From Nitrospirota bacterium (GTDB lineage Bacteria; Nitrospirota; UBA9217), in the NCBI GenBank assembly GCA_963751455.1, contig CAVVUN010000002.1, positions 96,001 to 160,000 on the forward strand: 64,000 nucleotides of DNA, in the 5' to 3' direction. The number at the start of each line of letters is the position of its first letter. Position 1 is the first letter of the stretch. Both the position numbers and the translations under genes were made by a program. Under the pieces are notes generated by a model, which worked only from the letters and a program-made list of their open reading frames with translations, made no database searches and was not told the origin of the DNA. This document shows positions 20,603-48,288 of the stretch, in pieces.

Positions 20603-20704
20603 TTGTCCGCGCTTTTTCCTTTTTCAATGAAGCAGTCCACAACCAATTAGTAAAACTCCTTTTTTATCAATAGATTTAGACGATGCTCAAATTAGAATTT
20701 TACG

Positions 20705-20739
20705 TTGACATTTCCATAATAATATAATAATGTTTGCAT
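20705..20739 (+). promoter_or_regulatory. Sigma70 promoter (TTGACA-17-TAATGT) overlapped by a candidate ArsR operator
   Basis: TTGACA at 20705; AATATAATAATGTTTGCAT at 20721-20739 matches the reverse complement of 24971-24989 at 17/19 positions. Confidence 0.6.
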
Positions 20740-20786: not shown

Positions 20787-21038
20787 ATGAAACTTCACGA
20801 CCCGATAAACATCATGCTTGACTGCTGCATCCCGGACAAAAAGAGACTAATGCTCGAGTTGAGCAAATTATCTCCTGGTGAAACGCTCAAAATCGAGGTA
20901 GATAACTGCGTCATGTCCAAGGCAATGGTAGAGGATTTCGTAAAAAACAAATGGTACAGCATTGTTCAGACCGTTGAGCGGGATGATTTCACCGTTTTGC
21001 ACATACAAGCCAAGACTATAGACACGAGCACAGTTTGA
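20787..21038 (+). CDS. TusA/SirA-like sulfur carrier
   Basis: 83 aa; CCIP at the CPxP position and L..LSPGETLKIEVDN pattern. Confidence 0.6.
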   Translation: MKLHDPINIMLDCCIPDKKRLMLELSKLSPGETLKIEVDNCVMSKAMVEDFVKNKWYSIVQTVERDDFTVLHIQAKTIDTSTV

Positions 21039-21063: not shown

Positions 21064-21405
21064 ATGATTCCCATAGAAAAAAGAATCGAACTGTTGAAGA
21101 TAATAGCACACCCTGTGCGGGTAAAAATTCTCGAAGACCTGACGAAGAGCGTGAAGTGCGTAAGCGATTTCGAGGAGTCGCTCGACATCAGCCAGCCGAA
21201 TGTGTCCCAGCACCTTTCACTGCTTCGCTCTCACGGCGTCATAGATTTTTATATTGACGGAAGGCTGAAGTGCTATTTCCTCAGGGAGCCGCTCATTCCC
21301 GATCTGCTCGAACTATTGAAGAAAGAATATGAAGAAGATGTTCCGGCGCCGGCATGCTGCCCGGTGACAAAAAAGGGAACTTATCCAGGCGAAAGGAGAC
21401 ATTAA
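21064..21405 (+). CDS. ArsR/SmtB-family repressor with C-terminal CC
   Basis: AHPVRVKIL and SQPNVSQHLSLLR HTH; Cys in KCV, KCY and PACCP. Confidence 0.88.
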   Translation: MIPIEKRIELLKIIAHPVRVKILEDLTKSVKCVSDFEESLDISQPNVSQHLSLLRSHGVIDFYIDGRLKCYFLREPLIPDLLELLKKEYEEDVPAPACCPVTKKGTYPGERRH

Positions 21406-21410
21406 GAAGG

Positions 21411-21695
21411 ATGAAGAAACACATGATCACACTCTATGTTAACGACCCTATGGGGAAACGCTGATTATCCAATACGGAAGCCGCCGGTCGGGCGGAAACG
21501 GAATTCGGCGCACAAATCGTAGTGATCAAGAAGACATCGAATGAGTACAGCCAAGAGAAAGACCCGCCTCCGTGCCCGTCAGTAATGGTGAACGGCAGGT
21601 TCATCGCCAGGAACGACACTATCAAGTATCAGGCGCTCAAGACGGCGCTCCTGAGCGACAGCGACATAGAGGAGACGGCGTCATTATCGCCGTAA
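21411..21695 (+). CDS. Small thioredoxin-like selenoprotein, NDPMGKRU motif (UGA at 21462-21464); absent from the ORF track
   Basis: 94 aa through the UGA; PCPSVMVNG cis-Pro-like motif; SECIS-like CCGCC-GGTCG-GGCGG at 21481-21495; paralog at 32645. Confidence 0.85.
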
Positions 21696-21776: not shown

Positions 21777-22133
21777 ATGTCGAAAACCGTTACTCTGTAT
21801 TTATCAACATCGCCGTATTCCTACGAGAACACCTTAACAAGTGCCCGCATTGCTGAATCGGCCTTGAACAAGGGCCATACCGTCAATCTCATTGCGTCGG
21901 CTGACGGTATCTATTGTTTCCTGACAAAACAGAAGGCGAAGGGCATACTGAATGCCGAGGAGGAATTTTCCCGGCTTATTCAAAAGGGGCTGAAGGTGTA
22001 CCTTTGAGGCGGGTGTCTCAACTTTCGCCGTGCGGCGAAAGACGATTACCTTGCAGGTTCTGAGGTCGGCTCCCTCAAGGGTTTGTTTGCAACCATGGGC
22101 GAGAGCGACGTCTGGATCAACGTCGGAGCATGA
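21777..22133 (+). CDS. DsrE/TusD-family sulfur relay protein with Sec (UxxC; UGA at 22005-22007)
   Basis: AAGGAGG RBS; SPY..ADGIY..VYL-U-GGCLNFR; readthrough gives the normal 118 aa length; hairpin TTTCGCC-GTGC-GGCGAAA at 22023-22040. Confidence 0.87.
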
Positions 22134-22175
22134 TTCAAAATGCGGATTGCGGAATTAAAACACAAGGAGGATGAG

Positions 22176-22529
22176 ATGGCTGCCATAGCAATGATTCTGA
22201 AGCGGTCGCCTTATGGCGACATCAACGCGGCCGAGGCCGTGCGGCACGCTCTCGGAGCCGTGTCAGGCGAATTGAGCGTGGACCTGATCCTGATGGACGG
22301 CGGAGTACTGCTTGCGAAGAAAGGACAGGACGACACCGGAACCGGCTTCACCAATCTCGAAGGCGCTCTCAAGGACTGCATCGACATGGGTGTAAGTGTG
22401 TATGCGGATGACTACTCCTTGAAGACCCAACGCGTAGGGCTGAGCGATGTGGTAGAGGGCGTAAAACCAGTCAGCGCCAAAAATATTGCGCAACTGGTGA
22501 ATGAGGCAAAATCGACGATGATATTTTGA
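22176..22529 (+). CDS. DsrF/TusC-like protein
   Basis: RSPYG..AEAVRHA..MDGGV..VYADDYSL pattern; AAGGAGG RBS; second gene of the trio. Confidence 0.8.
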   Translation: MAAIAMILKRSPYGDINAAEAVRHALGAVSGELSVDLILMDGGVLLAKKGQDDTGTGFTNLEGALKDCIDMGVSVYADDYSLKTQRVGLSDVVEGVKPVSAKNIAQLVNEAKSTMIF

Positions 22530-22541
22530 GAGGAGGCTGCT

Positions 22542-22823
22542 ATGCTCGTGATGATTAAAAGTGCACCCGACACGACGGATGGGGCGCTCGGCTTGACCCT
22601 TGCGAAGGAAGGCAGTGCTGATCTTGTCCTGCTGCAGAACGGAGTCTACTTTGCGCAAAAGGAACGACTCGGCGCTTTTTCCGGTGCGGTGTACGTCCTG
22701 GGTGACGACAAGAGGCTCCGAGGTCTCAAGGATTCAGAAATGGATGATCGCGCGAAGACCATTGACTACGACAAGCTGACGGACATTATTACCGGAGGAG
22801 AAAAGGTTGTGGGAATGTTTTAA
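22542..22823 (+). CDS. DsrH/TusB-like protein
   Basis: LLQNGVY..VYVLGDD..RGL..IDYDKL; 93 aa. Confidence 0.82.
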   Translation: MLVMIKSAPDTTDGALGLTLAKEGSADLVLLQNGVYFAQKERLGAFSGAVYVLGDDKRLRGLKDSEMDDRAKTIDYDKLTDIITGGEKVVGMF

Positions 22824-22900: not shown

Positions 22901-24091
22901 ATGGCAAGGATCGTTGTTTTAGGGGGATCGTTCGGGGGATTGACAGCGGCCTTTGAGCTGAAGCGGCTGCTCGGGAAGAAAGCGGATGTAACCGTAGTGA
23001 GCGACGATGACCGGTTCGTGTTCCTGCCGTCGCTGCCGTGGCTTATTATGGGGTGGAGAAGGCCGAAGGACATCACGCTCAAGGTCGGCGATATTTTGAA
23101 ACCGAAGGGGATCGCTTTCGTCCATGAAGCCGCGAAGCAGGTTGACGCCGACGCATCGAAGGTAATCACTTCTCAAGGCAAGGAGCTGCCTTACGATTTT
23201 CTCGTCATATCGACAGGTCCGCATCTCTCCTTCGATGAAATTCCGGGACTGGGCCCGGACAAAGGGCATACGGACTGTACCTTTACACTCGACCATGCGG
23301 TAAAGACGGGTGAAACATGGAAAAAAATTCTTGAGAACCCTGGTCCGATCGTCGTCGGATCATCGCAGATGGTGAGCTGCTTCGGCCCATCCTATGAACT
23401 TGCCTTTGAAATGGATGCCGAGCTTCGGCGTCGCAAGATGCGCCACAAGGTCCCCATCATCTATCTCACGTCGGAGCCTTACCTCGGCCATATGGGCGTC
23501 GGCGGTCTCGGCAAATCAAAAACGTTCATGGAAAACGAGTTTGCCGAACGTGATATCAAGCCGTTTATTAACCAGGCAATTCAGGAAGTGGCGCCCGGAG
23601 AGATACGGCTCAAGGACGGAAACAAAATTCCCTTCAAGCTCGCGATGATTGCCCCGCCGTTCAAGGGCGTGCCCGCCGTCATGCCGCTCGGAAATCCGCG
23701 CGGGTTCATCCCGGTTGATAAAAACTACCGTCACATGAAACACAAGAATATTTTTGCCATAGGCGTTGCAATGGCCATTGCACCGCCGGAAGCTACTCCG
23801 GTGCCGACCGGCGTGCCGAAGACCGGATTCATGACCGTAAAGATGGCAAAGATCGCTGCGGCGACTGTCGCCTCGGATATTACCGGCAAGCCAGCGCCTT
23901 TGGCTGATGAACTCGGCGTGGTCTGTCTCATGGACATGGGAAACACAGCCGCGTTCATGAAAGCGTATCCAGTACTGCCTCCCCGGCAGAGTTCGTATAT
24001 GAAAAAGACGATCTGGGCAAAATGGATGAAGGTCAGGTTCGAGAAATATTTCCTGTGGAAAATGAAGAGGGGGCTTACGAATCTGCCATGA
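22901..24091 (+). CDS. sqr: Sulfide:quinone oxidoreductase-family flavoprotein
   Basis: GGSFGG Rossmann motif; SCFGPSYE, VPKTG and VCLMDMG carry the two catalytic Cys; amphipathic C-terminal FEKYFLWK. Confidence 0.8.
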   Translation: MARIVVLGGSFGGLTAAFELKRLLGKKADVTVVSDDDRFVFLPSLPWLIMGWRRPKDITLKVGDILKPKGIAFVHEAAKQVDADASKVITSQGKELPYDFLVISTGPHLSFDEIPGLGPDKGHTDCTFTLDHAVKTGETWKKILENPGPIVVGSSQMVSCFGPSYELAFEMDAELRRRKMRHKVPIIYLTSEPYLGHMGVGGLGKSKTFMENEFAERDIKPFINQAIQEVAPGEIRLKDGNKIPFKLAMIAPPFKGVPAVMPLGNPRGFIPVDKNYRHMKHKNIFAIGVAMAIAPPEATPVPTGVPKTGFMTVKMAKIAAATVASDITGKPAPLADELGVVCLMDMGNTAAFMKAYPVLPPRQSSYMKKTIWAKWMKVRFEKYFLWKMKRGLTNLP

Positions 24092-24492
24092 AAAAAGAGC
24101 TATTGAAGCTGCATGCTGATTTTTGCAAGATATTTTCAAATGCCATGCGGCTTGAAATACTCTGCCTGCTAAAGACAGGAGAGCTGACAGTCGGCGAGAT
24201 CACCGGGAAGCTTGAAATTTCAAAGGCGAATACGTCCCAGCATCTGGCCCTCATGCGCATGACGCGTATTCTGACAACGAGAAGAAAAGGCAATAATGTT
24301 TATTATGGAATCGCCAATAAAAAAATCTGCCGGGCATGCAGCCTGATGCAGGAAGGCCTGGAACAGCTTTATGGAGATGATACGACCCCACCCCGCAACT
24401 CCCCCCTTGCCAAGGGGGGATTAAGGGAGGTGTTAAAGGAGGGACAATATGACGAAGATAGTAAAAAATGTATCGATCATGTGCTTCCATGA
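24088..24492 (+). CDS. ArsR-family repressor (BigR/SqrR-like Cys in RLEILC); tail extended by a palindromic repeat
   Basis: HTH ANTSQHLALMR; Cys in helix 2 and ICRAC; ATGA overlap with sqr. Confidence 0.8.
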   Translation: MKKELLKLHADFCKIFSNAMRLEILCLLKTGELTVGEITGKLEISKANTSQHLALMRMTRILTTRRKGNNVYYGIANKKICRACSLMQEGLEQLYGDDTTPPRNSPLAKGGLREVLKEGQYDEDSKKCIDHVLP

Positions 24493-24871
24493 CGAGCTCT
24501 GCCAGGTTTACAATGCGCTCATGACTGCATTGAGCATCCTCAGGGAAGGCTCAAAAGTCACGATGTTTTTCGGATCTCGCGGAATCAACGCGGTCCACAA
24601 GGATAAGGTGAAGGACCTCAAGTGTCTGCCGGACCAGCCCAAGGAAGAAGGCGATGCAGTGATGAAAAAAATGGAGGAAATGGAACTGCCGACAGTCGAG
24701 GACCTCTTCTTCATGCTAATCGCAGAAGGGGGGGCGGTCCTCGCCTGCCCGCTGAACGTCTCCCTGTTCAATATTACTGCGGGGCAGTTGATCGACGGCG
24801 TCAAGGTGGCGGATCCTGCGAAGTACTATAAAGAAATCATGATTCCTGCGGATATGAACCTGACTTTTTAG
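24449..24871 (+). CDS. DsrE2/DsrE-like sulfur transferase
   Basis: VTMFFGSRG..ELPTVEDL..VLACP pattern; AGGAGG RBS. Confidence 0.72.
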   Translation: MTKIVKNVSIMCFHDELCQVYNALMTALSILREGSKVTMFFGSRGINAVHKDKVKDLKCLPDQPKEEGDAVMKKMEEMELPTVEDLFFMLIAEGGAVLACPLNVSLFNITAGQLIDGVKVADPAKYYKEIMIPADMNLTF

Positions 24872-25011: not shown

Positions 25012-28000
25012 ATGCGTAAATTTTCTTTAGTCGAATTTTCAGTCGACCATCCCAAGCTCATTGTCGTCCTGTCGATCATTCTTACCGTCGTCTTCATGAC
25101 CCAGTTCCCAAAAGTGAGGACGGACACGAACCCCAAGAACATGCTGCCGCCTACGTCTGCCGTCCGGGTCGGGAACGATGAAATCGAAAAGACCTTCGGC
25201 CTGTATGAGGACATGATCGTCCTCGGAATCCAGAACGAAAAGGGCATCCTGAATACGGACACCCTCGGCAAAATTCAGCGGATCACCGATGAGACCCTGA
25301 AGATCAAAGGCGTTGCGGCCCGGGACGTATCGAGCTTCACGACCATTGATAACGTCACAGTTGAGGGTGAGACGTTAATGGTGAGCCCGCTCATGACCGC
25401 GGTGCCGAAGACGGATAAAGAGCTGTCCGTCATGAGGAAGGCCCTCTTCGAGAATCCGCTCTTCATCGACCGCATCATATCGAAAGACGGCAAAACCACG
25501 GCTATCTATGTCCCTCTCGAAAAGGGCTCAAACGGAAAAGAGGTCGCGGACAAAATTCGGGAGCTCGTCAGGAAAGAGAAGGGCGACGAAAAATACTATG
25601 TTGCCGGCGATCCCGTGGCAAGGGACACCTTCGGAGCGGACATGTTCAAGCTCATGGCCGTATTCGCGCCCATAGCCGGGATGGTCATGCTGATCGTTAG
25701 ATTTCTCATGTTCAAGGACCTGTTCCTCTCAATCACGCTGATGATGGACGCCATGATCAGCATCGTATGGAGCATGGGACTCCTGATCGCTCTCGGATTT
25801 CCCATCCACATCATGAGCTCCATGGCCCCCGTGTTCCTGATGGCAATCGCAACGGACAGCATGCACATTTTTAACGAGTTCTACTTCCGGTTCCGTGAGA
25901 AGAAAGACAAGCGGGCTGCGATCATCGCCACCATGCAGGCGGTCAGCCGTCCGGTCCGGAATACCGCCCTTGCAACCGCAGCTGGTTTCGCCGTGCTATT
26001 GTTCATGAACATCATCCCGGTCAAGGTTTTCGGCGGACTTGTCGCGTTCGGGACGATAGCCCTTCGTGTCCTGAGCTTCAGCTTCATTCCCGCGATGTTC
26101 ATGTTCGTGAAGGAGGAAAAGATCGAGAAAATAGCGCGATCAGAGGACGCTGAAGCAGGCGGTTCGGTCTTCCTGAAGAAACTGGCCGGGCTCGGTATCC
26201 GCAAACCCCTGACAACCGTTCTTGTCGGGATCGTGCTGATCGTAGCCGCCATCATCGGCATTTCAAAAACGATCGTAAACAACAATATGGTGGAGTGGTT
26301 CAAAAAGGGCAGCGAAGTGCGAGTCGCCGACACGGTCATGAACAAGGCCCTGGGCGGGACATCTCTGGGCTATATCGTGGCTATCTCCGACAAGGACGAC
26401 TACATTAAAACGCCGGAAGCCATGCGATTTATCGAAGGACTTCAACGCCGCCTGGAGAAACTGCCGGTTGTCGGAAAGACTACTTCGGTTGTTGACTATG
26501 TCAAGAGGATCAACCGAGTGCTCCATAACGACAACCCCAAATTCGACGCAGTCCCCGGGACAAAGGAGATGATCGGCCAGTATCTGTTCCTTTTCTCCAT
26601 GTCGGCGAAGCCGTCCGATCTCGACAACGTCGCTGACTATCCCTTCCGCAAAGCCAATATCTGGGTGCAGCTAAAGACCTGGGATGCAAAGGCCATGGAA
26701 TCGGTAATCGCAGAAGTCAATGCATTCAAAAAGGAGAACCCGACCCCGATGGAATTCAAGCCTGCCGGGATTGCCTACTTCAACCTGGTCTGGAACCATG
26801 AAGTTCTTTGGGACATGGTAAAAGGCCTTGTTTTGGCACTCATTGTCGTATTTGCTATCCTTGCATACGATTTCCGGTCCATCAAATGGGCTGTTATCGG
26901 GTATATCCCGCTCCTGTTCACGATCCTGCTCATTTATGGGGTCATCGGTTATATCGGCAAGGATTTTGACATGCCCATCTCGGTCATGAGCTGCCTCTCC
27001 CTCGGCATGGCCGTGGATTTTGCCATCCACTTTGTGAGCAGGTTCAGGCAGCGACTGAAAGAAATTCAGGGAACGGGCGACGCGAAACAACATATAACAG
27101 ATGCCTTACTCTGGACTGCAGCTCGTCCGGGGAAGGGTATCATGCGGAACGCCATCCTGTTCGCCGCGGCTTTCGCGGTAATGCTCTTTGCTCCGCTGAC
27201 GCCGTATGTCACGGTAGGCGCCTTCATCGTGAGCATGATGATGCTGAGCGCTCTTATGACGATACTCTATTTGCCCGCCCTCATAACATTGCTGCGGGGC
27301 TGGCTCTTCCAGGGAGGTACTGACGTGAAACGTGTTGCTGCAACAGCAATTGTTCTGGCATTTGCGATATTTACATCGGCAGCGGCTGCCGCGGACAGCG
27401 GAACGGATATCATGAAAAAATCCCAGGCTGCTTTTCTTTATTCAGGCAAGGACTTCAAGGCCCGCATTCAGATGAAGCTGATCACTCAGAGCGGGCAGGA
27501 GCGGCTTCGGGAGCTGACGATGCTCAGAAAGAATTTCGGCGAGCCGGGCGGCGAGCAGAAGTACTTCATGTATTTCTTTCTGCCGGCGGATGTCAAGGAC
27601 ATGACCTTCATGGTCCACAAGCACCCCGGCAGGGACGCGGACCGCTGGCTGTTCGTGCCGGCGATCAGCATGGTCAGGCGGATCGCGGCCAGGGACAAGA
27701 GCTCAAGCTTCGTAGGCTCAGATTTTTCCTATGAAGACGTTTCAGGGAGAAATATTGACGACGATACGCACGTCCTGGTGAAGGAAGAAAAGCTCGACAC
27801 CAAAGATTGTTATGTGGTCAAGAGCACGCCCAAAGCTGCAGATGTGGATTACTCGTACAAAATGTCCTGGATCGACAAAGGCACTCATCTGCCGCTCAAG
27901 GAAGAGTACTATGACAGAAAGGGCGATCTTTACAAAGTCTTTACAGCGAATGAGATCAAAACGATAAAGGGATTTCCTACTATTACGAAGCGTACTATGA

Positions 28001-28125
28001 AGAATGCTTTGAGCGGACACCGCACGGATGTTACTTTCCTTAAGGCTGATTATGACCTGGGGATCGACGACAATCTTTTCTCTGAACGTTTTCTGAAACA
28101 GCCTCCCAAGAGGTGGATTGAATGA
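25012..28125 (+). CDS. MMPL/RND-family transporter in frame with a LolA-like outer-membrane lipoprotein-sorting domain (internal start at 27325)
   Basis: Two MMPL repeats (IATDSMH, GMAVDFAIH), then FVGSDFSYED and D.DRWLFVPA..VRRI LolA-like motifs. Confidence 0.8.
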   Translation: MRKFSLVEFSVDHPKLIVVLSIILTVVFMTQFPKVRTDTNPKNMLPPTSAVRVGNDEIEKTFGLYEDMIVLGIQNEKGILNTDTLGKIQRITDETLKIKGVAARDVSSFTTIDNVTVEGETLMVSPLMTAVPKTDKELSVMRKALFENPLFIDRIISKDGKTTAIYVPLEKGSNGKEVADKIRELVRKEKGDEKYYVAGDPVARDTFGADMFKLMAVFAPIAGMVMLIVRFLMFKDLFLSITLMMDAMISIVWSMGLLIALGFPIHIMSSMAPVFLMAIATDSMHIFNEFYFRFREKKDKRAAIIATMQAVSRPVRNTALATAAGFAVLLFMNIIPVKVFGGLVAFGTIALRVLSFSFIPAMFMFVKEEKIEKIARSEDAEAGGSVFLKKLAGLGIRKPLTTVLVGIVLIVAAIIGISKTIVNNNMVEWFKKGSEVRVADTVMNKALGGTSLGYIVAISDKDDYIKTPEAMRFIEGLQRRLEKLPVVGKTTSVVDYVKRINRVLHNDNPKFDAVPGTKEMIGQYLFLFSMSAKPSDLDNVADYPFRKANIWVQLKTWDAKAMESVIAEVNAFKKENPTPMEFKPAGIAYFNLVWNHEVLWDMVKGLVLALIVVFAILAYDFRSIKWAVIGYIPLLFTILLIYGVIGYIGKDFDMPISVMSCLSLGMAVDFAIHFVSRFRQRLKEIQGTGDAKQHITDALLWTAARPGKGIMRNAILFAAAFAVMLFAPLTPYVTVGAFIVSMMMLSALMTILYLPALITLLRGWLFQGGTDVKRVAATAIVLAFAIFTSAAAAADSGTDIMKKSQAAFLYSGKDFKARIQMKLITQSGQERLRELTMLRKNFGEPGGEQKYFMYFFLPADVKDMTFMVHKHPGRDADRWLFVPAISMVRRIAARDKSSSFVGSDFSYEDVSGRNIDDDTHVLVKEEKLDTKDCYVVKSTPKAADVDYSYKMSWIDKGTHLPLKEEYYDRKGDLYKVFTANEIKTIKGFPTITKRTMKNALSGHRTDVTFLKADYDLGIDDNLFSERFLKQPPKRWIE

Positions 28126-29414
28126 GGAAGTTCAAGACAGTAGGGCACAGATGTCAGATGACAGACTGGATCGGACTGTTTGTTTTTAGTCTGTGCTCTC
28201 TCTTCTGCGTCCTGATTTCTTCATCAGTGTTTGCAGCCGATTTTTCTTTTCACGGTTTCGCGCAGGGCAATTATTCGAGGGATACGGGTGCGGACAATCC
28301 TGACGGCAAGGAATTGAAATGGTCCGAGGAGCGGGTCCAGCTTAAGTTCGAAGCCTCGCAGGACCCGTTCCGGCTGTTTATCAAAGAAGACGTTTTTTAC
28401 GATCATCTCGATAGGGAAGCCCATGCCGAACTGCGCGAGGGTTATGCCGACTATGCCGCCGGGACGTGGGATGCTCGCGCCGGAAGGCAGATTATCACTT
28501 GGGGCCTTGGGGACCTCTTGTTCATCAACGATGTTTTTCCCAAGGACTACGAGGCGTTTTTTTCCGGCAGGCCGCTTGAATACCTCAAGAAGGGCGTTGA
28601 CGCAGTCAAAATCGGGGCCTATCCTGGCTTTGTATCTGCGGAATTTGTCCTGATTCCGATTTTCGAGCCCAACACGTTTCCTGATCCCAACCGCTTCTCA
28701 ATGTTCGATCCCTTGTCAGGCGTTACGAACAGGGCAGAGCAAAAACCGGCTTCGACCGCCGAAAACAGCGAAGTTGCGCTGCGGCTCTATCGCGACGTGA
28801 TGGGGCTCGACGGTTCCCTCTATTTCTATAAAGGATATTTCCGGCAGCCTTCAGTCCTGCCCGATAACCCAATGGCTCCGACAAAGCTCACGTTCTTTTA
28901 CCCGAAACTGAACGTCTATGGCGCAAGCCTGCAGGGAAGGGCCGTGGATGGCGTGGTGAGCCTGGAAGCCGGGTATTATGATTCAAGAGAGGACCAGTCC
29001 GGCAATAATCCCATGATCCCGAATTCCCAGACGCGGTATCTCCTGGGCTATCAAAGGCAGTTCTGGGAGGATTTCACGCTGGGCCTCCAGTACTACGGCG
29101 AGTACATGCAGGATTACGGAGAATACGGACAGAGCCTGCCTGCCGGGTTCCCTATGGACAAGCGCCTGCATCAGCTCGCAACGATCAGACTCATGCAATT
29201 TTTGAGGCACCAGACGTTGAGGCTTTCCTTCTTCGCGTTTTACGGGATTTCCGACAGGGATTACCTGATCAATCCCGAAATAAAATATAACTTCACGGAC
29301 TCTATCTGGTTTGCTCTCGGAGGCAATTTCTTCGGCGGGGAAAAACCCTGGACGCAGTTTGGACAACTGGCGAATAATGACAATGTCTATACTCAGGTAA
29401 GATATGAGTTCTAA
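28122..29414 (+). CDS. Outer-membrane beta-barrel protein (DUF1302-like partner of MMPL/LolA-like modules)
   Basis: Signal peptide; LREGYADY..RAGRQIITWG; C-terminal QVRYEF. Confidence 0.7.
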   Translation: MRKFKTVGHRCQMTDWIGLFVFSLCSLFCVLISSSVFAADFSFHGFAQGNYSRDTGADNPDGKELKWSEERVQLKFEASQDPFRLFIKEDVFYDHLDREAHAELREGYADYAAGTWDARAGRQIITWGLGDLLFINDVFPKDYEAFFSGRPLEYLKKGVDAVKIGAYPGFVSAEFVLIPIFEPNTFPDPNRFSMFDPLSGVTNRAEQKPASTAENSEVALRLYRDVMGLDGSLYFYKGYFRQPSVLPDNPMAPTKLTFFYPKLNVYGASLQGRAVDGVVSLEAGYYDSREDQSGNNPMIPNSQTRYLLGYQRQFWEDFTLGLQYYGEYMQDYGEYGQSLPAGFPMDKRLHQLATIRLMQFLRHQTLRLSFFAFYGISDRDYLINPEIKYNFTDSIWFALGGNFFGGEKPWTQFGQLANNDNVYTQVRYEF

Positions 29415-32644: not shown

Positions 32645-32899
32645 ATGAAAAAGCGGACAATTACGATGTACATGAACGACCCGATGGGCAAGTGGTGAAT
32701 TTCGCTGATGGAGTCCGCCGGTCGGGCGGAGAAGGAGTTGGGCGCTGAAGTCGTTGTGATCAAGAAGACGTCCCCGGAATACGCATCGGAAAAGGACGCA
32801 CCTCCCTGTCCATCGGTAAAGATTGATGATTCTTTTGTTGTTAAGAGGGGCTTGGTCACCTATGATCAGCTTAAGGCCGCTGTATTAAAAGAGGACTAG
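32645..32899 (+). CDS. Second thioredoxin-like selenoprotein, NDPMGKWU motif (UGA at 32696-32698)
   Basis: AAGGAGG RBS before ATG 32645; 84 aa; hairpin TCCGCC-GGTCG-GGCGGA at 32714-32730; homologous to 21411-21695 on both sides of the UGA. Confidence 0.88.
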
Positions 32900-33949: not shown

Positions 33950-34997
33950 ATGGAAATAAAACTCACACACCTTTCAAGCTGCGCCGGTTGAGCCTCTAAA
34001 TTCAGCCCTGCTGATCTGTCCCAGGTCCTGGGACAATTACCGAAAATCATCGATCCCAATGTACTCGTCGGTTCCTCGAATGCCGATGATGCGGGTGTAT
34101 ACCGCATCACCGACGAAATTGCCATGGTCTTTACCGCCGACTTTTTTACGCCGATCGTCGACGACCCGTACTGGTTCGGCGCCATCGCCGCGGCGAACTC
34201 GCTCTCGGATGTTTATGCCATGGGCGGCAAGGCCCTGGTTGCCTTGAACATCGCGGCACTGCCCGGCACGCCTGATTTTGCGGAGATCAACAAGCGGATC
34301 ATGCAGGGCGGCATCGATAAAATGAATGAGGCCGGAGTGGCGATCATCGGCGGACATACCATCAAGGACAAGGAGCCGAAATTCGGATTTGCCGTTCTCG
34401 GCTCTATCCATCCCGGTAAAATACTCGATAATACCAAGGCGAAACCGGGTGATGCGCTGATTATCACGAAGCCCATCGGGACAGGGATCATTGCAACCGG
34501 AATCAAAGCCGGAAAATGCAGCCGTCGAAACAGCTGACCTCTTCACGAAGTCCATGGCAACCCTCAATAAACGGGCAAGCGAGATTATGCTCGAGGCAGG
34601 CGTGAACACGGCCACGGACATTACCGGGTTCGGCCTGATCGGTCATCTGAGCGAAGTTCTTATAGCGAGCAGGTGCAGCGCGCGGCTGTACGCAAGCAGT
34701 GTCCCGTTTTTCAAGGAAGCGATAACGCTCGCGGACATGGGCATGGTTCCGGGCGGTACACGGGCCAACCTGAAGAACTATGAATCGATCGTGGAATGGG
34801 CATCAGGTGTTTCAAATACCGAACGGTTTTTGATGAATGACGCTCAGACCTCGGGCGGGCTTCTTCTATTCGTTTCGAAGGGTAATAAAAAAAGGCTGGT
34901 GTCCGCGCTTCTTAAGGATAACATCATGGCCGCAGAAATAGGTGCACTGGTTGATACTGCTCCCATCGGGGATAAACGGATATTTGTGGAGAAATGA
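33950..34997 (+). CDS. selD: Selenide, water dikinase, Sec form (UGA at 33989-33991); one apparent indel near 34520
   Basis: LTHLSSCAG-U-ASK, DDAGVY, DFFTPIVDDP, DVYAMGG, TDITGFGL and DAQTSGGLL motifs; hairpin TGTCCCA-GGTCC-TGGGACA at 34017-34035. Confidence 0.92.
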
Positions 34998-44952: not shown

Positions 44953-45173
44953 CAGAGAATGCATTGCAAATCGGAAATTGTAAATATTAAAATGCAAATT
45001 TATGGAAGAAAAAGCCAACAAGTCAAAAATACTGAAAGAGCTAAGCCTTGAATGGGCACTCGATGAGACAACGCAGCTTTGTAATATTATCGGAAAATCA
45101 GTCGTGACAGCCAAGACACAGAAATAAATTTGCAATTTGACATTTGCAATTTGCAATTTCATCAGGAGGCCTT

Positions 45174-47648
<2,475 letters not shown>

Positions 47649-47649
47649 A

Positions 47650-48288
47650 ATGACTCGAGGGACGAGGGATGAAATTAAAGACGAGGGACGAAAAAGGATT
47701 ACGTCCATCGTCCGAGCGAACAAAGTGAGCGGTCGTCCATCGTCCCGCGGATTCAAAGGCGGTCGTCCATCGTACATTGTGGTCCTGCTCGCGTTTTTGA
47801 TCATGCTGACCGCCTCCTGCGCTTACCATTTTTCCGGCACCGGATCCCTTCTGCCGCCCGGAGCCGATAATATTTCCGTTCCCGTTTTCTTTAATGCAAC
47901 GAGTGAACCGTACGTGGATGTGGAAGTAACGCAGGCAGTGGTAGAGGAATTTCTTACCGACGGCAGGCTCAAGGTCATGGCCCTTGAAGAAGCCGACTTG
48001 GTTCTGCGGGGCACGATCATCAAGTATGAAGTGGTCCCGCTGTCCTACAATCCCCAATCCTTTGTTCAGCAGTATCGTGTCCGTCTGGTTGTGGAAGCCG
48101 CACTCCAGGACATACGATCAAAGAAAATCCTGTGGCAGGAAAAAGGCATCGAGTCGAATTTCATCGCGGATTATGCCGTTACCCTGGGCAATATCACGGC
48201 CACGAAGACGGCAAAGGAAGCGGCAATCAAAAAGGCGAGCCAGGATATTGCGTGGACGCTGCGAAGCAGGATTTTGGAAGGATTCTAA
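47650..48288 (+). CDS. lptE: LPS assembly lipoprotein LptE family (start uncertain)
   Basis: Lipobox LTASC followed by AYHF; conserved leuS-lptE-holA order. Confidence 0.75.
   Translation: MTRGTRDEIKDEGRKRITSIVRANKVSGRPSSRGFKGGRPSYIVVLLAFLIMLTASCAYHFSGTGSLLPPGADNISVPVFFNATSEPYVDVEVTQAVVEEFLTDGRLKVMALEEADLVLRGTIIKYEVVPLSYNPQSFVQQYRVRLVVEAALQDIRSKKILWQEKGIESNFIADYAVTLGNITATKTAKEAAIKKASQDIAWTLRSRILEGF

Follow-up and report, generated by a model that had tools for sequence, protein, structure and literature searches.

The dsrE-like gene considered here is interrupted by an in-frame UGA codon, and the genes that follow encode counterparts of DsrF and DsrH and a sulfide:quinone oxidoreductase (SQR). 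This arrangement raises the question of whether the UGA ends the protein or is read as selenocysteine (Sec), and of what a DsrEFH-type trio with Sec at its reactive position would do. The gene lies in a 64,000-nucleotide stretch of DNA from a Nitrospirota bacterium, called the window below. Unprefixed coordinates are positions in the window, and its features are collected in Table 1.

Under translation table 11, the dsrE open reading frame ends at 22007. When TGA is translated as U, the frame runs on to a TGA stop at 22131–22133 and yields a 118-residue protein with the segment VYL-U77-GG-C80-LNFR. Both points had been made in an earlier reading of the window from its letters alone (the sequence-only reading), and both hold. 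The start is the ATG at 21777, which has a good ribosome site, and the readthrough product matches PF02635 over residues 5–115 (54.2 bits against a cut-off of 22.7; E 2e-14). In two sets of loci that overlap and are kin, so that the counts are not independent, codon 77 is TGA in 36/37 genome loci, the remaining locus ending short of the codon, and in 80/80 metagenome loci (the best 80 of 354 confirmed). Codon 80 encodes Cys in 35/37 and 79/80 of the same loci (again the best 80 of 354). The frame past the UGA is free of stops in all 32 full-length orthologues, with a mean identity of 84%, and the codon differences there amount to 428 synonymous vs. 207 non-synonymous. Every one of the 120 best database matches to the Sec-containing DsrE ends at the UGA.

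Downstream of the UGA, at +23 nt, the sequence-only reading had placed a 7-bp hairpin with a GTGC loop. This hairpin is borne out (stem 22023–22029 with 22034–22040), and one further C-G pair flanks it. Bacterial SECIS elements carry a G in the loop (PMC1088965), and the present hairpin lies just 3′ of the UGA and has a G opening its loop. The folding energy, which alone is weak evidence, gives z = −2.6 for 36 nt (6/200 shuffles as good) and z = −1.6 for 60 nt (11/200). The codons under the hairpin (82–85, 87, and 88) are nearly frozen among the 32 full-length orthologues: R84 is CGC and R85 is CGT in 32/32, and a single codon prevails for F83 in 31/32 and for A87 in 29/30. In the same orthologues, 40 other conserved four- or six-fold sites of dsrE reach at most 0.84. 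Across 20 aligned sequences, one of them a Cys form, 89% of the alignment cells pair. Five of the seven pairs vary on both sides, most such changes stemming from one divergent subfamily and hence reflecting few events. The covariation score was reached by 0/500 shuffles, and slid structures scored lower.

The Sec machinery is encoded in the genome. The selA and selB genes score over their cut-offs, and there are two tRNA-Sec genes, the second of which adjoins a YedF-like TusA-DsrE fusion gene on a small contig (G000:C13:3947-4670). Since codon and frame are conserved, a SECIS signal follows, and this machinery is available, the comparative evidence indicates that the UGA is almost certainly decoded as Sec. 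On the opposing view, dsrE is truncated, and its TGA is either a genuine stop or an error of assembly. Proponents could point to selD, which is frame-broken in the same assembly, and to an orthologue (L037:4218-4563) with a small frameshifting deletion directly after the UGA, itself a pseudogene or an assembly error. We consider truncation highly improbable, given that the same TGA occurs in more than 100 other loci, that the frame past it is open and under purifying selection, that a covarying hairpin lies downstream, and that natural Cys orthologues exist. Three sequencing runs contain small shares of the locus; no contig piece listed from them spans 22005–22007, and no RNA run is listed as containing the locus. 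A genome-wide recoding, with UGA read as Trp or similar, was also rejected: neighbour genes stop at TGA where their orthologues use TAA or TAG.

The selD gene, which has its own in-frame UGA, contains one extra base relative to four relatives. The dsrA and leuS genes are likewise frame-broken, which suggests assembly indels; leuS, the leucyl-tRNA synthetase gene at about 45150–47650, reads over several frames. Against this, only 1 of the 37 gene places tested is split. The break in selD is probably an assembly error. A programmed frameshift in selD is unlikely, as the three split copies are broken at different positions and the majority of copies are whole.

Table 1. Features of the Sec-dsrE region of the window, in order of position.
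Feature	Coordinates	Strand	Evidence
Degenerate TusA-like gene, outside the conserved cassette	20787..21038	+	below Pfam cut-off
ArsR/SmtB regulator, C-terminal Cys-Cys-Pro, head of the cassette in most loci	21064..21405	+	profile, locus counts
TsoC-like predicted second selenoprotein, NDPxGxxU; UGA 21462–21464, hairpin 21481–21495	21423..21695	+	NF045708
DsrE-family predicted selenoprotein, 118 aa, U77-G-G-C80	21777..22133	+	PF02635, profile and fold matches
In-frame UGA, predicted selenocysteine 77	22005..22007	+	TGA conservation; Cys-codon orthologues
Predicted bacterial SECIS hairpin, 7-bp stem, loop GTGC 22030–22033	22023..22040	+	folding, frozen codons, covariation
DsrF/TusC-like subunit, 117 aa, one Cys (68)	22176..22529	+	profile vs. 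2HY5_B
DsrH/TusB-like subunit, 93 aa, no Cys	22542..22823	+	PF04077, profile
SQR, type I-like, Cys126/160/342	22901..24091	+	3HYV E 5.5e-98, 3SY4 E 4e-95
Second ArsR-family regulator	24088..24492	+	solved relatives HlyU, 6O8K-type ArsR, BigR; helix-2 Cys aligned
DsrE2-like protein (PF13686), four Cys	24449..24871	+	PF13686
MMPL/RND transporter fused to LolA-like domain, start inferred	25012..28125	+	Pfam, locus counts
Putative outer-membrane protein, role inferred	28122..29414	+	weak Pfam match only
selD, own in-frame UGA at 33989, one-base frame break near 34530	33950..34997	+	comparison with relatives

The sequence-only reading had also described a complete E/F/H trio whose DsrE carries Sec at the position of the persulfide-bearing Cys78, and profile and structure comparisons agree with it on both counts. 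A profile of 30 E proteins matched only two solved sequences, YchN (E 1.8e-7) and Allochromatium (A.) vinosum DsrE (E 4.4e-4), with U77 aligned to the first Cys of the YchN CKTC motif and to Cys78 of DsrE (VCVAAA). An AlphaFold model of E (pLDDT 88) matches 1JX7_A, 2HY5_A (TM 0.87), and 2D1P_A in Foldseek. The equivalence of U77 and Cys78 rests on the profile alignment together with Foldseek. In the model, a strand ends at U77, and the helix after it has C80 in its opening turn. The F family profile has DsrF (2HY5_B) as its best match (E 1.4e-14), and the H profile matches TM0979, TusB, and DsrH. The single Cys of DsrF lies off the active-site-equivalent position. An alternative DsrF start at 22140 was rejected; the ribosome site and the orthologues favour 22176 as most likely.

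All three equivalog scores fall below their cut-offs (TIGR03012, 15.3 vs. 89.25 bits; TIGR03010, 30.7 vs. 94.15; TIGR03011, 38.8 vs. 49.2). From these comparisons, E, F, and H likely work like DsrEFH, and we do not assign them to type I or type II. Of 81 full-length distant relatives, 70 already have a CxxC motif, so that CxxC predates Sec and Cys80 is inherited; as a resolving residue, Cys80 may be regarded as a candidate.

That the trio sits directly upstream of SQR, as first read, is confirmed, and the linkage is tight, with a highly conserved E-F-H-SQR order. The catalytic Cys motifs of this type I-like SQR align with those of 3HYV and 3SY4, which we take to be the Aquifex and Acidithiobacillus enzymes. 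Neighbours were counted with a slightly generous denominator, namely, loci with a match or with enough flank. In the metagenome loci (best 80 of 354), F was present in 73/73, H in 64/64, SQR in 50/51, and an upstream ArsR in 54/60, with lower counts for MMPL (19/27), DsrE2-like (16/30), and TsoC-like genes (19/46). The genome loci gave 34/34, 34/34, 30/32, and 32/34 for the first four and 17/27, 14/26, and 20/35 for the other three. SQR was also found in 15 of 20 more distant loci, and a Cys form with a different SQR type still keeps E-F-H-SQR. The TusA-like protein was rejected as the sulfur donor: its gene scores under the Pfam cut-off, the cysteines are lost in one orthologue, and a TusA-like neighbour occurs in 0/34 metagenome (best 80 of 354) and 1/30 genome loci.

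Among 57 loci, the recurring neighbours are TauE (two families), another DsrE-family gene (14 loci), selD (7), and a multiheme cytochrome (5). The extra DsrE-family gene (at L019:4661-4978 and in 13 further loci) often separates ArsR from the Sec dsrE, and TauE permeases and the multiheme cytochrome are inserted at the same place in other loci. Two distant loci were verified to carry YeeE-type and rhodanese genes. A promoter scan returned one good promoter-like site, at 20699–20728, and counts in the terminator scan were at chance level.

Directly upstream of dsrE is a gene, missed by gene calling and absent from the sequence-only reading, for a TsoC-like protein. In the orthologues compared, the TGA occupies a matching position, and the NDPxGxxU motif is accompanied by a conserved PCP. 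Its predicted fold is weakly thioredoxin-like (best E 4.9e-3). A second TsoC-like copy, with a UGA at 32696 and a similar hairpin, occupies 32645–32899, upstream of a methyltransferase gene, selD, and a TauE-like gene. The window resembles the Tso (three-selenoprotein operon) system (TsoC, NF045708; TsoR, NF045707) in having a TsoC-like gene preceded by ArsR. It differs in that neither TsoC copy quite reaches the cut-off of 45 bits (41.7 for the copy beside dsrE, 44.5 for the other). TsoA and TsoB had no match among 14 scanned proteins.

How widely does the Sec form occur? Among the matches listed (146 weaker ones lie outside the list), internal-TGA matches are found in 111 of 401 Nitrospirota genomes. 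Among 20 loci that were fetched, the active-site TGA was verified in 16, and the other four are Cys orthologues (VELCGTC; 56–57% identity) with the same ArsR-E-F-H-SQR order. The latter (L068–L071) have a different, more distant SQR type, and in one of them rhodanese and YeeE-type genes come next. The idea that Cys orthologues mark genomes without Sec machinery was refuted, as all four genomes match selA.

Again among the matches listed, selA is present in 101 of the 111 TGA genomes (101/193 selA-positive vs. 10/208 selA-negative genomes). The ten others have no selA match at E 1e-40, and four of them (G111, G321, G325, and G351) are at least 96% complete. The corresponding figures for dsrA, among the matches listed, are 105 of 111 (105/202 dsrA-positive vs. 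6/199 dsrA-negative); dsrA and selA span nearly the same families, so that co-occurrence is confounded by kinship. In family f16, dsrA and selA are present in 14/14 genomes and a cassette match, a weak one, in only 1/14.

In a midpoint-rooted tree of 60 rows and 119 columns, the Sec forms group in a single clade (support 95/95), the Cys forms lie outside it, and two non-Sec database proteins nest within. The nearest Cys outgroups are CxxC DsrE-family proteins of Thermotogota, Chloroflexota, and Desulfobacterota. This sequence tree fits one Cys-to-Sec origin with later losses.

The second part of the question is what such a trio would do. We propose, with a probability of roughly 55%, that the Sec DsrE, DsrF, and DsrH form a carrier that takes the sulfane sulfur of SQR on Sec77 and passes it to a cytoplasmic acceptor. 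The proposal builds on the Cys78 chemistry of A. vinosum DsrEFH, on the same chemistry in the type II trio, and on gene order. In A. vinosum, Cys78 of DsrE binds sulfur and hands it to DsrC, as reported in PMC3397948, and the divergent type II trio is described in PMC13293266 as transferring sulfur likewise, via Cys67.

By analogy with 2HY5 and 2D1P, E, F, and H would form an α2β2γ2 complex, and we think it very likely that they do. SQR would oxidise sulfide to polysulfide, and Sec77 would form an R-Se-S-H adduct with the sulfane sulfur. Going by general chemistry, selenium would speed both the loading and the release of sulfur. A role of the trio as sulfane-sulfur carrier, taken by itself, is somewhat better than an even proposition. 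The acceptor would be DsrC or else a TusA from another part of the genome, so that sulfur would be cleared or fed into the Dsr pathway; the link to DsrC in particular is tentative, and we would sooner bet against it than for it. Cys80 and the TsoC-like selenoprotein would reset an oxidised or over-loaded site, and the ArsR regulators would activate the cassette in response to sulfide or sulfane sulfur.

Several observations count against a carrier. The closest solved relative of the Sec DsrE is YchN, a CxxC protein, and not DsrE, and the Sec DsrE scores far under the TusD equivalog cut-off. The DsrH of the window has no Cys at all, and A. vinosum depends on DsrH-Cys20 in vivo (PMC3397948). No dsrC or tusE is among the recurring neighbours in the 57 loci. 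The genome does contain dsrAB, dsrC, and 11 TusA-domain matches, and a dsr cluster about 210 kb from the cassette (G000:C2:327000-339200; dsrA frame-broken) reads dsrAB-dsrC-dsrH-dsrE(Cys, CEAC)-dsrF-dsrT-dsrMK, the gene names being our reading of the translations. The DsrE of this operon falls in another part of the tree than the Sec DsrE, and its Cys H-E-F trio, beside dsrC, is the more obvious DsrC partner.

The main rival to the carrier is a persulfide reductase. In such an enzyme, Cys80 of the UxxC motif would attack the Se-S adduct and free sulfide, the resulting selenenylsulfide ring would be re-reduced by the TsoC-like protein, and the trio would strip excess persulfide or polysulfide rather than pass its sulfur along. 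The near invariance of Cys80, the placement of U77 and C80 in the model, and a predicted thioredoxin-fold selenoprotein upstream all speak for this, and surveys place the DsrE-like UxxC proteins among redox selenoproteins (PMC1088965). However, the thioredoxin match is weak, the TsoC-like gene is missing from many loci (see the counts above), and turning the SQR product back into sulfide would make a futile cycle, except where the two reactions run in different compartments or under different conditions. We therefore regard a reductase as unlikely, if clearly worth weighing.

Less likely are three further roles. Trafficking or detoxification of selenium (selenide or polyselenide), for instance delivery to SelD in the manner of the TusA-DsrE fusion YedF, seems to us quite unlikely. 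It is suggested by selD near the cassette in 7/57 loci and 12 kb away here, by weak matches of 19/30 E members to TIGR03527, and by the CGXC-containing DsrE domain of YedF, linked to SelD in PMC5322559. Yet most loci lack selD and SQR is a much steadier neighbour, a YedF-like gene stands apart from the cassette next to a tRNA-Sec gene, and a selenium supplier that needs Sec itself would be awkward. Metal or metalloid handling, with the vicinal C-terminal cysteines of ArsR as sensor and with UxxC and TsoC binding or reducing the metal, is less likely still. The Cys-Cys-Pro end of the first ArsR and an arsenic-responsive ArsR structure among its matches do point that way, and a review ties several such selenoproteins to metal resistance (PMC13188914); set against this, no ars or mer efflux or reductase genes are among the recurring neighbours in the 57 loci, and the constant partners are sulfur enzymes and transporters. 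Least probable of these roles is that of a TusBCD-type relay serving the thiolation of tRNA or the synthesis of cofactors. Homology to TusBCD and the IMG names would favour it, but neither tusE nor mnmA recurs among the neighbours (57 loci), the scores lie below the equivalog cut-offs, and the distribution is patchy and tied to SQR.

The carrier proposal must also be set beside known systems. DsrE-like UxxC selenoproteins have been tabulated as predictions of unknown function since the Sargasso survey of Zhang et al. 2005 (PMC1088965), again in a 2006 survey for Desulfovibrio vulgaris (PMC1794560), and in a 2026 review (PMC13188914; WP_014524487.1). The present DsrE shares PF02635, a single Sec, the UxxC motif, and a bacterial SECIS with that computationally predicted family. 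Compared by description, it differs in that published members are listed singly there, with F/H or SQR linkage unstated. E. coli YchN (1JX7) and CxxC DsrE-family proteins give the best sequence and fold match, and their CxxC is in the corresponding position. A single gene encodes the homo-oligomer YchN, whereas in the present cassette E is followed by F and H genes wherever the flank of a locus is long enough.

The type I DsrEFH of A. vinosum (2HY5) and E. coli TusBCD (2D1P) have three homologous subunits, the E-F-H order, the same fold, and a reactive residue at the Cys78 position in common with the present trio. The latter, in contrast, has Sec in place of Cys, an extra Cys at +3, no DsrH Cys corresponding to Cys20, and 15% structural identity, and it is linked to SQR rather than to dsrC/tusE or oxidative dsr genes. 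Type II DsrEFH is assigned at >80 bits with three HMMs in PMC13293266 (2026). It is described there from cable bacteria and other organisms with reductive dsrAB, Nitrospirota included, and the paper argues that divergent trios let reductive-DsrAB organisms oxidise sulfur. The present trio is likewise a divergent EFH trio in dsrAB genomes. Compared by description, type II has yeeE and tusA as neighbours and relies on Cys67, whereas the constant partner here is SQR; TusA-like genes are nearly absent from the loci counted above, and YeeE-type genes occur in two distant loci only. The string "selenocys" has 0 occurrences in the text and supplement of PMC13293266. The DsrE-like SaoD of the SAO system, in the description available, is never a selenoprotein, the main text of the BSepDB paper has no mention of DsrE or Nitrospir, and we found no paper on a Sec-DsrEFH/SQR cassette in listings from an open-access library. 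The DsrE-like UxxC selenoprotein type is thus known, which limits the surprise, and apparently new is a Sec-bearing EFH trio linked to SQR.

It is tempting, if speculative and on balance doubtful, to see in the cassette a third, selenium-based DsrEFH type of anaerobic Nitrospirota that arose by one Cys-to-Sec change and would couple SQR directly to cytoplasmic sulfur trafficking. If so, it would be the first DsrEFH with sulfane sulfur on selenium, and about half of the dsrA-positive Nitrospirota would gain a concealed path by which sulfide could reach DsrC and a Dsr pathway running in reverse. DsrEFH serves as a genomic marker of sulfur oxidation, and surveys that rely on it are likely to miss a trio whose key residue lies behind a stop codon. 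With correct annotation, the sulfur metabolism inferred for many Nitrospirota of groundwater and sediment could change. According to PMC11033732, most Thermodesulfovibrionia with reductive dsrAB have dsrFH but lack dsrE; truncation of dsrE at the UGA could explain this, and the divergent Cys dsrE of the dsr operon could equally do so. As the carrier occurs in nature both with Sec and with Cys, selenium's contribution to sulfane-sulfur transfer could be tested directly.

A divergent Sec subfamily (L072–L076 and L087; about 40–45% identity; UTGC motif) occurs in the same cassette with its own DsrF. Its DsrH and SQR can be 83–88% identical to those of the window, an apparent swap of the E-F pair. 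L072 comes from a complete genome; there, the genes for Sec-E, F, and H seem to be whole, and only fragments are left of the SQR, MMPL, and outer-membrane genes.
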